A stretch of 64,000 nt of DNA from a phage. Of the stretch, positions 43,240 to 58,431 are shown piece by piece (the stretch's first letter is position 1; the number at the start of each line of letters is the position of its first letter). A program made the translations under genes and the position numbers. The DNA is taken from sequence record OZ336094.1. One strand, written 5' to 3'. The notes below the pieces were generated by a model that had not been told where the DNA came from, did not search any database, and saw nothing but the letters and a program-made list of their open reading frames with translations.

Positions 43240-44412
43240 ATGACAGCACCAAAATCATGGGAACAATATAAAGAAGAATTAACACCCCTTGCTAAAAATC
43301 GCAATATTCAAATCCTGGGTTATGTTGGTGAATGGAAAGGGAACAAGACTAAACTTAAGCTATCTTGCCCTAAACATGGAGAGTGGAACACCACGAACAT
43401 TAATGATTTTAAGAAGGGACGTGGTTGTCCTATCTGTTCTGGTAAGAAGCCGTTAACATGGGAAACAGAATTGCCGATCTTGGAAGAGATAGCACAGAAG
43501 AGGGGGTATCAGGTGTTAGGGTACGTGGGAGAATGGAAAGGGAATAAAACAAAACTTGATTTGTTGTGTCATTGTGGTAATAAATGGGATACTACAAGTA
43601 TTAACAATTTTAAACGTGGTAGCGGTTGTCCACAATGTAAGAGGGAGAGACAAACAATGTCCGACGATCAACATATTGCAGATTTCTTTTCTACAGGGGA
43701 ATTTAAGGAAGGCACTATCTTCACCAATACAGGGAAACGTAACAAGCGTGATACAGTATGGATGGTTGAGTGTCCTGTTTGCTCCCATGATGAATATGTT
43801 CAAGCAGGTGTTTGTGATGGTAAATTTTACTCTGCAGGACATAACCTTAAACAAGGGTATATTCCGTGTCGTTGTGGGAACTATCAGTATACAGAAGACC
43901 AGATCACCTATAGGGTAAAAAAGGAAGTAGAAGGGAAAGGGTATGTCTGGGTAGATTGGATTACCAAACCCTCTTCTATAGGTAAGTTTAAATATCTTTG
44001 TCTTGTGCATGGTGAGCAGATAGGGAGTGCTCGTAATTTATTAAGCCTCGGTCAAGGTTGTCCACAGTGTGCTGGTCATAATCAACAGCAATTATATATT
44101 AATATTGTTAAAGATAATGATATTATAGTTGCTCTTAAGTTTGGTATATCTAAAGATAGCGATAGACGATTAAACGGTCAAAATAGCCGTAATCTGTTTT
44201 TTATGGAGCGTATTTGTTTATATGATTTTAGCACAGTGAAACAATGTAGGGCTGCTGAAAGAGCTATAAAGAAAAAATTAAAAACTGGTATTTTAACGGC
44301 AAGAGAGTTGAAAGATGGTTATACAGAAACAGTAAGTGTTTCTGATTTGGAAAATCTTCAAAAAATTATTACACAATATGGTGGCAAATTAGTATACAGT
44401 AAGGAGATGTAA
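43240..44412 (+). CDS. Zinc-ribbon repeat protein with C-terminal GIY-YIG-like (T5orf172-type) domain; possible nuclease / homing-endonuclease-like
   Basis: Repeated modules LGYVGEWKGNKTKL..C..G.W.T..IN.FK.G.GCP.C; C-terminus LYINIVKDNDIIVALKFGISKDSDRR resembles GIY...YIG spacing. Confidence 0.35.
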   Translation: MTAPKSWEQYKEELTPLAKNRNIQILGYVGEWKGNKTKLKLSCPKHGEWNTTNINDFKKGRGCPICSGKKPLTWETELPILEEIAQKRGYQVLGYVGEWKGNKTKLDLLCHCGNKWDTTSINNFKRGSGCPQCKRERQTMSDDQHIADFFSTGEFKEGTIFTNTGKRNKRDTVWMVECPVCSHDEYVQAGVCDGKFYSAGHNLKQGYIPCRCGNYQYTEDQITYRVKKEVEGKGYVWVDWITKPSSIGKFKYLCLVHGEQIGSARNLLSLGQGCPQCAGHNQQQLYINIVKDNDIIVALKFGISKDSDRRLNGQNSRNLFFMERICLYDFSTVKQCRAAERAIKKKLKTGILTARELKDGYTETVSVSDLENLQKIITQYGGKLVYSKEM

Positions 44413-44964
44413 ATGCGGATTACTGATAAGTATGTGTTCTTCTTCTCGGCAAAAGATGAATTTAGCAACTGGTATCTATCATCTTTTATTGAACCTTTAG
44501 CTCCCAAGTATAATAATTCTATTACAAGTTCTGTTGAATTTACTTGTGTGGAACAATATATGATGTGGAGAAAAGCATGTTTGTTTTATGATTACAACAT
44601 TGCATCTTCTATTTTAACCGGAGATCTAAGATATACAGGAGAAAAAGAACAGGCATATTATAAGCGACTAGGTAGATTAGTTAAAGATTACGATGAAGCT
44701 ACTTGGACTTCTTTACGGGAGAAGATTGTCAAGCGTGGTTTGTATCTTAAATACACACAAAATGAAGATCTCAAAAATAAACTTATAACCTACGCAGATA
44801 AGGAGTTCGTAGAGGCAAGCCCTTATGATTCTATTTATGGTATCAAAATGGGGATGTGGGATCGTGATGTGGAAAATAAGGACTGTTGGAAAGGACAAAA
44901 TCTTTTAGGAAAATGGCATACAGACCTTGCTGTTTATCTAAAAACACAATCTGATATTTCCTGA
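44413..44964 (+). CDS. NADAR (YbiA-like, DUF1768) domain protein
   Basis: FFFSAKDEFSNWYLSSF, EQYMMWRKACLF and SIYGIKMGMWDR align with YbiA motifs (FYSTSDDYGDFSNF, EHYFQAQKF, DAYWGDGGHG). Confidence 0.55.
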   Translation: MRITDKYVFFFSAKDEFSNWYLSSFIEPLAPKYNNSITSSVEFTCVEQYMMWRKACLFYDYNIASSILTGDLRYTGEKEQAYYKRLGRLVKDYDEATWTSLREKIVKRGLYLKYTQNEDLKNKLITYADKEFVEASPYDSIYGIKMGMWDRDVENKDCWKGQNLLGKWHTDLAVYLKTQSDIS

Positions 44965-45180
44965 TATTTTGAAAATTTTTATTTTTATAAAAAGGGGTGT
45001 GGGTTTCATGTACGGAAATTCACCCTCTGCACAGTATATCCAGAGTAAGTAGTATTCTACACCCTGTTAATAAAGTATTTAATTTGTTTGTTGGACTATG
45101 GTATCTGATCTTTAAAAGACATACTATCTCTTAACTACTACTTATAACAGAACAGTAAAATCATTTTTATAAAAAGTACA

Positions 45181-45382
45181 AAATTATTTAAAGTTTTTAC
45201 AGATTTTTGGGTACAAATTTTGAAAATGAAAAGTTCAAGTTTGGTCAAAATTATTTAAAGTTTTTGTACGTATTTCTGTCCAGATTTTGAAAATGAAAAC
45301 TTCAATTTTTTAAAAATTCCCCAGTTTATTTAAAGTTTTTTTGCCTTTTTCCGTAGAAAAATCAAAAATGAAAAGTTCAATT
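45181..45382. repeat. Three imperfect direct repeats of about 66-76 bp, each with TATTTAAAGTTTTT and TTGAAAATGAAAAGTTCAA blocks
   Basis: Seen directly; conserved blocks with 34-37 nt spacing; ORF-free AT-rich DNA. Confidence 0.7.
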
Positions 45383-45401
45383 TCGTGTTTTTATAGGTGT
45401 G

Positions 45402-45515
45402 TTAATGAGAATCATTTTCGTTTGTAAATGAGAATCATTATCATTTAACTATGTAAGTGATAATCATTCTCAGTAAGAGAATGAGAATCATTAGCAAATG
45501 AGAATTTTCTCATTT
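45402..45515. promoter_or_regulatory. Array of five or more palindromic AATGA-GAA-TCATT boxes (Fur-box-like)
   Basis: AATGAGAATCATT x3, GTGATAATCATTCTC, and perfect palindrome ATGAGAATTTTCTCAT; one base from the Fur core AATGATAATCATT. Confidence 0.5.
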
Positions 45516-45776
45516 AGAGAATAACGCGCAGGGGCGGTGTTTGTCTCGCGCTCCCGTGTCCCCTCGCCATACAATAAGAATAGCATAACCAACAACAAAA
45601 GCAAGCGATTATTTTTATCTTTACATTTCTTTACAAATTTATTTTAGACGAGCTACCGGCGATCAACCTTCCAACCAGTGCCCCCTGGTATGTTAGCCCC
45701 GCCTTTACGCCGTGGGGGTGGCGTTTCCTCTTCTGTATGTAAAACAGTATAAGCCCGATCCCTGGGCTTGTCAAGA

Positions 45777-46043
45777 TTATTTTTTGTTTTCTTGCCAGGA
45801 TAGGACACCTAACCAAAAATACATGTCGCCCCGCGCCCCTGGCGGGATCTTGCTTTCCCCGCCGCCACTGCAAGCCCATAGATAACCATTAGCGAACGGA
45901 TCAAAATGATCTATTTCTTCCACCTTATGATCGCCCAGGTTGAGAACGGTTTCAACCTTTAAGCCCGTTGCGCTTGCTACCTGGTGCACCGTGCCGCCTT
46001 GCCAGCCTAATGAGTGCATGAGGTGTAGAGTAGTATTTGTCAT
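45777..46043 (-). CDS. Hypothetical protein, 88 aa, in a GC-rich segment
   Basis: Track ORF; RBS aaaggg; local GC well above genome average; adjacent out-of-frame ORF 45631..45879 suggests possible frameshifted remnant. Confidence 0.3.
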   Translation of the reverse strand: MTNTTLHLMHSLGWQGGTVHQVASATGLKVETVLNLGDHKVEEIDHFDPFANGYLWACSGGGESKIPPGARGDMYFWLGVLSWQENKK

Positions 46044-46156
46044 GGTATCGCCCTTTCTTTGATGTGCGCCCTGGTTGGCGCGGTAGAAAGATAATAGCCC
46101 TTTCCTTTATAGATAGCAAGCAAAAAAAAAGAAATGAAAAAAAGATTAAAAAAGGG

Positions 46157-46185
46157 GTTGACGTTCCTCACCTGGTAGCGTATTA
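46157..46185 (+). promoter_or_regulatory. Sigma70-like promoter TTGACG-N17-TATTAT
   Basis: Good -35/-10 with 17-nt spacer; no canonical ORF immediately downstream. Confidence 0.4.
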
Positions 46186-46313
46186 TTCATCTTGTCGAGG
46201 GGGGCGAGGCACAACGACAATAAACAAAAGGAGGGCGCAATGTAGGACGGGCAAAGGTGAGGATCTCCATAATCCACCGTCACAATAACATTACTTATAA
46301 AAGGTTGATAACG

Positions 46314-46409
46314 ATGATCAAGAAAGAAAACAGCTTGACGGTTGGAACGATTAACGCTATCATTCTTGCCGTTCCATTTTGGATTGTAGTTGCGGTTATT
46401 ATTTTTTAA
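46314..46409 (+). CDS. Possible small hydrophobic peptide, 31 aa
   Basis: Hand-translated MIKKENSLTVGTINAIILAVPFWIVVAVIIF; weak RBS. Confidence 0.2.
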   Translation: MIKKENSLTVGTINAIILAVPFWIVVAVIIF

Positions 46410-46417
46410 AAATATTC

Positions 46418-46473
46418 TTGACAACGTTTTTTAATCTGATAAGATGTATCACATAGGGCGGCAATAGTGCCGC
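46418..46473 (+). promoter_or_regulatory. Promoter + 5' stem-loop cassette (TTGACA-N16-TAAGAT; hairpin GCGGCA-ATAG-TGCCGC)
   Basis: Member of repeated cassette family; followed by purine-rich RBS and ATG at 46498. Confidence 0.55.
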
Positions 46474-46497
46474 TCATAACAGAAGAGAGAAATAATC

Positions 46498-46770
46498 ATG
46501 GCATCATATAGCGCATCAATGATCGTAATGGGCATCACTGGTAAACCTATGCGCGGTGGCGGATCTTTCGCTAACATCAATATTGATGGGCGTTTATCCC
46601 TGGATGCAGCGATCACCGTGGCACGGGAAACATTTAAAAAAGAATGTAATTTCAATAAACAAGATTATCTCGGTTTCGCTATTGAAAAAACCGCGCGATT
46701 TGTGGATTATAAAAGCCCGAAAATGATCGACACTACACTAAAAGCGCAAGATGTAGCGTTTTTGCTTTAA
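46498..46770 (+). CDS. Hypothetical small protein, 90 aa
   Basis: Track ORF directly downstream of cassette. Confidence 0.5.
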   Translation: MASYSASMIVMGITGKPMRGGGSFANINIDGRLSLDAAITVARETFKKECNFNKQDYLGFAIEKTARFVDYKSPKMIDTTLKAQDVAFLL

Positions 46771-56346: not shown

Positions 56347-56548
56347 CCTAAATAAAGATGATAGCTTTTACCTATCAAGAACGTTCACCGAAAAAAGTGA
56401 ATAGATCGCGGTATCGAGCTAATCAAGGAGCAGATGAACAACCATACCATGAAGATCATAAGGCGCTTACAGCGTGTTTTAGACCGCTTATTTTTAATTT
56501 CTTCATGCAACTATCTGGCAAAAACAGCCTTTTTCTCATCTTTCCTCT

Positions 56549-56626
56549 TAAATGATAATCATTCTTATTTATAGCTGATTATTTATGCAATAAACTGCAT
56601 AATGCAATAATGATAATCATTCTTAA
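56549..56626. promoter_or_regulatory. Two exact AATGATAATCATT palindromes (Fur-box core) in an ORF-free AT-rich region
   Basis: ttaaATGATAATCATTcttat and caataATGATAATCATTcttaa. Confidence 0.5.
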
Positions 56627-56986
56627 CTTAAGACCATCTAACTTATAAAATAATAAGTTATCTAACTAAATTAAAGCTAATTATCTTACTTTTATTTATA
56701 ACATACTGTTACTATCTTATTGATAACTTTATATTAAACAACAATAATCAATGTAAATCATTACTAAGCTAACTATAATCTATCTAACCCTTAAAACTAT
56801 AACTATAATCTATCGAATTGTTGCACAAAGTAACTATTAAATTGTTAGTAACATTGCTAAATAATTAATATCCTATCTATTTATGATCTAATCTTTACCT
56901 TCCTATTTATCACCTAACTAATCATTCCATATAGTAATCATTTCATACAATAACTATAACAAGAAATATAATTCGCAAGCGTATCA

Positions 56987-57182
56987 TTAGCAGCCTATGC
57001 CGGACACATAGGCGGCTAATAATAACGCAACTACACACCCCACATAATAACCATCACCGATAGTCATTATTTGTGCTTATGTAGCTTGCAACAACTGCAA
57101 GCGCAACAATATACAATTGTATATTGTATCCCTTACATTGTTGCGGTGCGTTATTATTAGCTAATGTTTAGAACATTGGCTA
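56987..57182. repeat. Cluster of three long palindromes in a roughly 1.4-kb non-coding region
   Basis: TTAGCAGCCTATG-N7-CATAGGCGGCTAA; perfect 20-bp palindrome CAATATACAATTGTATATTG; TAGCTAATGTT-TAG-AACATTGGCTA. Confidence 0.7.
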
Positions 57183-57465
57183 TAATATAAGCTAAATAAT
57201 AAGCTATACAATAATAAACATCGTGAATAATGATGCTGATGATCATAATGCGCCACCTTCCAGGGGGGCGCTATGTGAACACAAAGAAATCTTTCTTGTC
57301 AAGAAAAATATTAACACTATTGCGCAAAATTATTTATATATGAATAGATGGTTTTTCATACTATTGCCCCCATATAGCCTATCATTTGTTGAGCCTACTT
57401 TCTTAAAAGCGCAATAAATCAGAATTATCTTGATTTTTAGGGCGTTTTATAGTACAGAAAATATG

Positions 57466-57487
57466 CAAATGATAATCATTATCAGCT
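57466..57487. promoter_or_regulatory. Near-consensus Fur box (gcAAATGATAATCATTATCagc)
   Basis: 17 of 19 positions match GATAATGATAATCATTATC. Confidence 0.5.
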
Positions 57488-57639
57488 ATCTTCCACGGGT
57501 GGCACTATTTCACGCCAGATCATTTCATTTGGCAAGGTGTATATAGATGTTTAGACTTGCCAAGCCATTGATTTACTTAGAATTTATCTGTTTTGTTGTG
57601 AGTAGTACCTTTCTTGCTCAGAAAATAATCAAAAGTCTT

Positions 57640-57672
57640 ATAAGTCATTGAATGATAATGCAAATGATAATT
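57640..57672. promoter_or_regulatory. Tandem GATAAT-type hexamer array (gAATGATAATgcAAATGATAATTATTCTCATTg)
   Basis: Overlapping Fur-like hexamers. Confidence 0.45.
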
Positions 57673-58053
57673 ATTCTCATTGATATTTGAGGGGGACGGT
57701 CGGCAGAAATCGGGGGGCGCTGAAAATCGCGTTAAGCACCTCTCGCAAGCGAGCAGTATTTTGCGGCAAGTTATTGATATTATTGACTTTACGCTTATGA
57801 AAAGGGGGGTGTGTCGAAATAAATCGGGTATACCGGAAAATTTTTGTGGTATAGATATTTATTTGTCTATATTATGTACAAAGGGGTGTGTTAAAAATAA
57901 TAGGTATATATAGAATAATTGATAGGGAAATCCTATACTAATCCCTATACTAATTCCTCCATTAATGATGTTCCTATGTTACTGTTCTTGTAATAGATGA
58001 AAAGACGCTGTATGATGTGTGGCATGAAACGTAAACTTATAAAGGAGTCTGAT

Positions 58054-58431
58054 ATGTGTGTTCCTCTTAGCAGTCCACTGCTGTTAGAATTTTACAAAGC
58101 ATGGATGCAAGATCATTCCTCAATGCATCGTGAGAATGTTGGTTTGTGTATTTGCCTTATGGATTATCTGGCAACCACTATGTCAAAGAAAAAACCTACG
58201 CAAGAAGATATAGAACATTTCAAAATGGTTCGCAGTAAAACGCTGGAAGAGATGAAATTGCAATTCACGTGTGCTGGGCTATCCTCCTTCCTGCCCTTTA
58301 ATGATGATCTTCTGTGTTATGAAGATGAAGGTAAGAAACATTCTTGCCATACTAACCCAGAGAGATTGCAGTGGGTGAAAGATCGTATTGCCGATTCATG
58401 TTTGGTGTTAGGGGGTGGTAATGAAAAGTAA
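58054..58431 (+). CDS. Paralog-family protein 1 (start refined), 125 aa
   Basis: Shares LLEFYK.W, GLC.CL.DY, FTCAGL, LPFN, CHTN..RLQWVKDRI with three other genes; RBS aaaggag. Confidence 0.5.
   Translation: MCVPLSSPLLLEFYKAWMQDHSSMHRENVGLCICLMDYLATTMSKKKPTQEDIEHFKMVRSKTLEEMKLQFTCAGLSSFLPFNDDLLCYEDEGKKHSCHTNPERLQWVKDRIADSCLVLGGGNEK

Follow-up and report, generated by a model that had tools for sequence, protein, structure and literature searches.

The repeat array and its position

What are three direct repeats of about 70 bp for when they lie in non-coding phage DNA, and what would read them? The question was raised by an earlier note on a 64,000-nt stretch of sequence record OZ336094.1 (the window), from Escherichia phage Paula, a virulent member of the genus Justusliebigvirus (phi92-like, Stephanstirmvirinae). 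On nucleotide comparison, positions 44400–46600 showed 100% identity to Escherichia phage Paula (LR865361) and 96–99% identity to about fifty other Justusliebigvirus genomes.

A repeat search of the window returned a three-copy family at 45163–45241, 45230–45308 and 45305–45383, with spacings of 67 and 75 nt; copies 2 and 3 possess 72% identity to copy 1. TRF likewise reported a period of 67 with a score of 185. The three repeats described earlier are thereby confirmed (periods 67 and 75 nt), and at the place given, although the family begins at 45163 and not at 45181. Each copy contains two blocks, here called box A and box B. The 15-mer TTATTTAAAGTTTTT (box A) has exactly three exact occurrences in the 64 kb, at 45184, 45251 and 45326 (0.00 expected from 100 shuffles), while TTGAAAATGAAAAGTTCAA (box B) is found at 45220, 45287 and 45362 with 0, 1 and 2 mismatches (0.08 expected in 64 kb). 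The start-to-start offset between the blocks is 35 nt in each unit, in agreement with the earlier estimate, or 36 nt counting from the 15-mer box A. The repeat motif occurs nowhere else in the window. The features are as follows:

45163–45383, no strand: whole array, three direct repeats, periods 67/75 nt, 21% G+C (repeat search, TRF, composition, variability)
45183–45198, plus strand: box A of unit 1, ATTATTTAAAGTTTTT (exact copy; consensus of 20 units, 7 genomes)
45220–45242, plus strand: box B of unit 1, TTGAAAATGAAAAGTTCAAGTTT (motif search, consensus, core comparison)
45250–45265, plus strand: box A of unit 2, ATTATTTAAAGTTTTT (exact copy; consensus of 20 units, 7 genomes)
45287–45309, plus strand: box B of unit 2, TTGAAAATGAAAACTTCAATTTT (motif search, consensus, core comparison)
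45325–45340, plus strand: box A of unit 3, TTTATTTAAAGTTTTT (exact copy; consensus of 20 units, 7 genomes)
45362–45384, plus strand: box B of unit 3, TCAAAAATGAAAAGTTCAATTTC (motif search, consensus)

The array is contained in NCR1 (44965–46497), 1.5 kb of DNA without a credible open reading frame (ORF), which is flanked by a NADAR gene on one side and by a run of small early-type genes on the other. No ORF worth calling crosses the array in the ORF list of the window. It is followed directly by a Fur-box-like array (45404–45520) and then by a GC-rich block, so that its non-coding location upstream of both was correctly described. In the records of two phages, inny and alia, part of the array is covered by a "repeat_region" feature for which no explanation is given; the phi92 record carries no annotation at this position. 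In a literature search the repeats turned up in no publication, and neither a transcriptome nor a mention of Fur boxes was found for these phages.

Unit structure in the Stephanstirmvirinae

The same three units are present in distant members of the subfamily: Citrobacter phage Tr1, Klebsiella phages KP2025 and FKP3, an IMG/VR contig and Phapecoctavirus ESCO13, in the last of which the middle unit is degenerate. Twenty units from seven Stephanstirmvirinae genomes were stacked to yield a consensus consisting of ATTATTTAAAgTTTTT, approximately 24 variable nucleotides and then AAAA-NN-AAAAtTTaaA-N-TTt. Information content is high in boxes A and B and near zero in the ~24-nt spacer, which bears out the proposal of two selected blocks with diverging spacers. 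The two blocks are, on the other hand, not independent motifs, since the box A core recurs in diverged form as box B. In the relatives it takes the form of a weaker copy of that core, ATTTAAAGTTT, at an offset of 46 bp wherever box B could be matched; in Paula, box B of unit 1 contains the diverged copy AGTTCAAGTTT, again 46 bp past the box A core.

Core copies are located at relative positions 0, 46, 67, 113, 142–143 and 189 in ESCO13 and Tr1, ESCO13 being without the two copies of its middle unit, and the same pattern, less clean, is seen in KP2025, FKP3 and L027. The array is thus built from three composite units in which a short core occurs twice; the six copies, of ~11–15 bp, are spaced by 46, 21, 46, 29 and 46 bp and fall into no simple helical register. 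Box A spacing is 66–68 and then 75–77 bp in every genome having three intact units, and the span from the first to the third box A is 141–144 bp in six Stephanstirmvirinae genomes and 138 bp in ESCO13.

The earlier note had also assigned dyad ends (TTGAA/TTCAA) to the units. These were found only in Paula-type units 1 and 2; the left arm is gone in unit 3 (TCAAA), and the dyad is missing from the other genera. Such symmetry is probably irrelevant.

Conservation and the Vequintavirinae counterpart

Among eight Justusliebigvirus genomes 3.2% of the array columns are variable, and all seven of these columns lie outside the boxes. The flanking non-coding DNA of the same genomes is more variable (15% just upstream of the array, 17.9% at 46044–46205). 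Since the variable sites avoid the boxes, and the boxes are kept while the spacers drift, the array is under selection. To judge from the sequences, it is a real, selected and unstudied cis-element, and its strongly conserved repeats are probably sites to which a phage protein binds. Conservation of the units in no relative had been named as the observation that would speak against a function; the units are kept in the relatives.

At the same position, eight Vequintavirinae (PVP-SE1, Mydo, CR8, 4MG, KNP2 and three contigs) also possess three units, of the unrelated sequence GGTTCTCGATCG...ATCGTATTT...AAAAAATTTTT, which are spaced 74–78 and then 63–67 bp apart. The first-to-third unit span is 141–143 bp in all eight, compared with 141–144 bp in the Stephanstirmvirinae. 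The sequence that the two subfamilies have in common consists of the Fur-like boxes, the GC-rich block and the leftward promoter beside the array. Because these host-readable motifs are shared, whereas the triple repeat has diverged and yet kept its geometry, a phage factor that has diverged along with it, and not one of the host, is suggested as its reader, and we infer that a lineage-specific, phage-encoded protein would bind the repeats.

DNA searches revealed no matches to the array in plasmids or in E. coli genomes. A pattern scan of IMG/VR gave mostly chance matches in addition to known relatives, and a match in FV3 (genus Vequintavirus) was discarded as merely a similar early promoter. 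The Vequintavirinae units contain 5–6 GATC (Dam) sites in ~170 bp (L009 2745–2945, L010 2590–2815, L011 2590–2790); the Stephanstirmvirinae units contain none.

Neighboring elements of NCR1

The other elements recognized in NCR1 are:

44951–45031, plus strand: left edge of NCR1, with two GATATTT copies 10 nt apart, an AT-rich stretch, AAAGGGGTGTG and a GGGTG...CACCC hairpin, the arms of which were identified by eye (motif searches)
45404–45520, no strand: four to five Fur-box-like palindromes of the AATGAGAATCATTCTCATT type, directly right of the repeats (repeat family, motif search)
45526–45745, no strand: GC-rich non-coding block with two CTTTACA copies 10 nt apart (cross-genome comparison)
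45746–45774, minus strand: leftward sigma70-type promoter, TTGACA-17-TATACT (promoter scan)
46158–46445, plus strand: three rightward sigma70-type promoters opening the small early-type gene cluster (promoter scan; gene layout)

The Fur operator is a 19-bp palindrome close to GATAATGATAATCATTATC. Fur-box-like sequences of the AATGATAATCATTCTCATT type gave 10 matches in the window against 0.1 expected, all of them in the two large non-coding regions; candidates such as AATGAGAATCATTATCATT cluster in NCR1 and near the terminus, the further sites being at 56551, 56609, 57468 and 57663, and two of the palindromes fall within the inferred direct terminal repeat. The Fur-box-like array was kept in every relative examined from the two subfamilies. 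Binding of Fur to these predicted sites is a candidate role for them.

The GC-rich block is found at 70–85% identity in more than 200 phage records of the two subfamilies, its carriers including Seunavirus, Certrevirus, Mydovirus and phages of Erwinia and Pectobacterium. No match to it was present in Rfam, and on neither strand did it give a convincing conserved fold; single-sequence folding gave z = −0.5 and +0.7, and alifold returned a structure conservation index of 0.1–0.37 with no covariation term. The block is situated directly downstream of the leftward promoter, which faces the block and, beyond it, the Fur boxes and the repeats and is found at the same place in all 15 genomes compared, with 9–12 of 12 matches. 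A minus-strand ORF of 88 amino acids at 45777–46043 (phrog_19316) terminates in a hairpin that doubles as the spacer of this promoter; its counterpart in the relatives is either a member of the phrog_19316 family or an unrelated ORF of ~60 amino acids, and CR8 has none.

In the Vequintavirinae the left edge of NCR1 contains 3–5 GATATTT copies at 10–12 nt spacing. In the window this motif and AAAGGGGTGTG, the latter with a preceding TATnAA-like hexamer, are found at this edge (44951–45031) and recur at and just past the inferred genome terminus (57681–57700, 57795–57811 and 57872–57890); they may represent promoters of a special class or be bound by another DNA-binding protein.

Upstream of NCR1 are genes specifying an AAA ATPase, a homing endonuclease and a NADAR protein, and this gene content differs between genomes. 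The homing endonuclease-like gene just upstream of NCR1 (43240–44412) encodes CapR repeats and a T5orf172 domain. The same place is occupied by another endonuclease (HNH in PVP-SE1) or by none in the relatives, and it looks like a hotspot for mobile endonucleases.

A possible origin of replication

An origin of replication would be the most likely location for the array. The specific form that we put forward, tentatively and as possible rather than probable, is a transcription-activated origin whose easily melted DNA carries the repeats as an iteron-like array. The three units would be composite sites for a phage-encoded, sequence-specific DNA-binding protein, the strong core (box A) and the weaker core 46 bp downstream (box B) of each being drawn into one nucleoprotein complex of ~210 bp. 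Host RNA polymerase would begin at the leftward promoter (45774–45746), and the transcript would cross the conserved block and the Fur-box array before entering the repeats. Bound protein and transcription together would then open the AT-rich DNA, at which the replisome of the phage itself would start.

In a ranking of the 200-bp segments of the window by duplex stability, 45068–45268, which the array overlaps, is the third least stable. For rV5, from the related subfamily Vequintavirinae, a T7-type primase-helicase and a family A polymerase are among the encoded proteins, and skew analysis failed to locate an origin (PMC3606486). In the window, GC skew follows gene orientation only. It is the low-stability DNA, the strong conserved promoter facing it and the rV5 replication gene set that together argue for an origin module. 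To our knowledge, Fur boxes are a component of no origin. A less stable AT-rich segment at 56.6–56.8 kb could be the origin instead.

Iteron arrays such as those of pSC101, P1 oriR and lambda ori resemble the array in the direct repetition of a short core within non-coding DNA that melts easily, in a sequence specific to the replicon lineage and in host-factor sites adjoining the array. To this extent the earlier designation "iteron-like" is apt, and the AT-rich unwinding DNA of an iteron origin is present (the low-stability segment; 21% G+C in the array). Classical iterons are 17–22 bp long and ~22 bp apart, usually in helical register. For iterons, the unit size of 67–75 bp and the core spacings of 46, 21 and 29 bp are atypical and count against this reading, the six cores being grouped here into three composite units. 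Unlike the known arrays, this one adjoins Fur-like boxes in place of DnaA or IHF sites: NCR1 gave no match to the DnaA box TTWTNCACA, and in 14 of 15 genomes none to the IHF consensus WATCAANNNNTTR, the sole match (L017) lying 511 bp left of the anchor and outside the repeat array of that genome.

An adjacent initiator gene is likewise lacking, none having been found among the genes upstream of NCR1. The AAA ATPase encoded near the array was considered as initiator and rejected, since it belongs to the classical p97/Bcs1/FtsH clade and not to the DnaA/Orc/DnaC clade. In a profile search it matched p97/Cdc48, and its predicted structure (pLDDT 86) resembles Bcs1, the proteasome Rpt subunits and FtsH, with a beta-rich C-terminal domain. 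As a source of a binder the upstream genes were uninformative (PHROGs of no known function, HNH and GIY-YIG endonucleases, DUF6939). An initiator may be encoded elsewhere in the genome.

The primary origin of T7 and oriF/oriG of T4 offer a second comparison. As at those origins, a strong promoter is succeeded here by an AT-rich unwinding region, in a phage whose replication proteins include a T7-type primase-helicase and a family A polymerase. The present locus differs in that its promoter belongs to the host sigma70 type, with ~360 bp between it and the AT-rich DNA, and in that this AT-rich DNA is a precisely repeated, sequence-conserved array.

Other explanations

Nearly as plausible as the origin module, and itself doubtful, is a transcriptional roadblock or switch, in which a phage protein on the units and Fur on the boxes would block or time transcription converging on NCR1, leftward from the promoter at 45774 and rightward from the 40–45 kb operon or a possible start near 44998. 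In this way the early gene block would be shielded by the array from the neighboring genes. NCR1 does lie between two co-directional gene blocks, with no good intrinsic terminator after the last upstream gene; the conserved promoter is directed at the array, and Fur is a transcription factor whose boxes stand between that promoter and the repeats. The argument for a lineage-specific binder applies to this reading equally. What weakens it is that the nearest good promoter is 360–600 bp away from the units and that no promoter overlaps them, that there is no coding sequence downstream of the leftward promoter to regulate, and that the fixed span of 141–144 bp exceeds the needs of a simple roadblock. 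The p4/p6 switch region of phi29 similarly has several phased sites for a small phage protein, in non-coding DNA between transcription units, that would assemble a higher-order nucleoprotein complex, but its sites are inverted repeats overlapping promoters, whereas those described here are direct and far from promoters. Also with Fur as a participant, though unlikely, is a T5-like injection stop or genome anchor. Infection would then begin with the entry of the terminal ~12 kb (8.5% of the genome) and expression of the small early genes on it; transfer would be interrupted at NCR1, host Fur and a phage or virion protein holding the DNA there. Rather improbable, even beside that, is the particular version in which the repeats and the Fur-box array form a gate for the incoming genome, with a two-step delivery of the terminal 8–12 kb first and with Fur replacing DnaA. 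The positions are suggestive in that the inferred terminal repeat (57392–57733) is 12.3 kb from the repeats, and that of KPP-1 ~8 kb, on the same side; Fur-like boxes occur only in NCR1 and the terminal region, and the early-gene promoters lie just on the terminus side of NCR1. The intervening genes are small, have sigma70-type promoters and are transcribed towards the terminus; the pre-early genes of T5 also point towards the terminus. In T5, a conserved, untranslated region of 1.2 kb with many repeats and boxes for the host protein DnaA lies at the inner edge of the first-step-transfer DNA (7.9%), with an HNH endonuclease gene nearby (10.1101/866236). The likeness to this injection stop region (Repeat Region 3 of the left terminal repeat) extends to a conserved untranslated length of ~1.2–1.5 kb with repeats and host-protein boxes, to a position at the inner edge of a terminal block of ~8% of the genome and to the small early genes and homing endonuclease gene nearby. 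The two regions nevertheless possess no sequence similarity. The boxes here are Fur-like; T5 has paired DnaA boxes in inverted repeats within a terminal repeat of ~10 kb, and NCR1 has none of these and lies outside a terminal repeat of only 342–514 bp. Moreover, no two-step DNA transfer has been reported for these phages, the block contains no evident large gene like A1 of T5, and the T5 mechanism itself is unproven.

The remaining explanations dispense with a binding protein of the phage or assign the repeats to packaging. A set of tandem promoters in the three units, recognized by host sigma70 or by a phage-modified polymerase, would be very unlikely, as would a small RNA or peptide encoded by the repeats. 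The AT-rich boxes do contain −10-like hexamers (TAAAGT on the plus strand, AATAAT on the minus strand), and the Paula units contain ATG-initiated mini-ORFs. Yet no sigma70-type site was detected on either strand of 45163–45400 at 9 or more of 12 matches, the occurrence of the motif nowhere else in the 64 kb is against a promoter class, the distance from box B to the next box A varies (21 vs 29 bp), and the ATGs are missing in the relatives. A small RNA is opposed by folding of the repeats no better than that of shuffled sequence (z = −0.82 and −0.76 on the two strands) and by Rfam, which gave nothing at gathering thresholds for the whole window and only chance-level miRNA matches on 44900–46500 at E-values up to 10; the window contained no tRNA or tmRNA genes. 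A neutral tandem duplication devoid of function is more improbable still and is contradicted by the pattern of conservation: the boxes are invariant while the flanks vary, the unit number, offsets and span are kept across genera with only ~70% DNA identity here, and unit number and span are kept across two subfamilies despite different sequence. The faintest chance of all attaches to a packaging (pac/cos) site or genome terminus. Terminase binding sites are typically repeated boxes and several database records begin or end near the region, but this reading was rejected, since the published terminal repeats map 8–12 kb away. By a rough estimate, ~13 of 270 records end within ~2.5 kb, near the ~9 expected for random ends. 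The record that starts inside the triple repeat (PQ002170.1; L050 1–91, L051 1454–1533) has an 80-bp end overlap labelled attL/attR and one unit collapsed, and represents an assembly overlap or break at the tandem repeat rather than attachment sites. As assemblies appear to break or collapse a unit at the array, unit counts in draft genomes need care.

Tandem composite repeats with two box types are also characteristic of plasmid centromeres (F sopC; box A/box B of P1 parS), from which the locus differs in that no ParA/ParB-type genes were seen nearby, that the phage is virulent and that no plasmid DNA matched.

Repeated protein-binding sites in the control or origin region of a phage are of a known kind, of which the array would be a variant. 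The phi92- and rV5-like phages are widely isolated and are therapeutic candidates. The locus offers a compact cis-region common to two subfamilies, comprising a putative protein-binding array, a Fur-box-like array, a conserved block and a promoter. As an origin, if it proves to be one, it would be of use in engineering and in building origin-dependent replicons. Binding by Fur would mean that a virulent phage reads the iron regulator of its host, which would be unusual, and, should the gate exist, the progress of infection would be tied to host iron status.

Genome terminus and the second non-coding region

The close relative BME3 is reported to have direct terminal repeats of 342 bp (PMC12210895). 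The first base of the BME3 record aligns to position 57733 of the window, from which the following feature, context that lies outside the array, was inferred:

57392–57733, no strand: inferred position of the 342-bp direct terminal repeat, the physical genome end (BME3 alignment)

In KPP-1 (Mydovirus) the terminal repeat is 514 bp long (PMC9862379); it was the distance of this repeat from the homologous region that was given above.

A second non-coding region of ~1.5 kb is located at 56530–58055. It includes the least stable DNA of the window (56613–56813, 19% G+C), short TAACTATAATCTATC repeats and a palindrome at 57096–57137.
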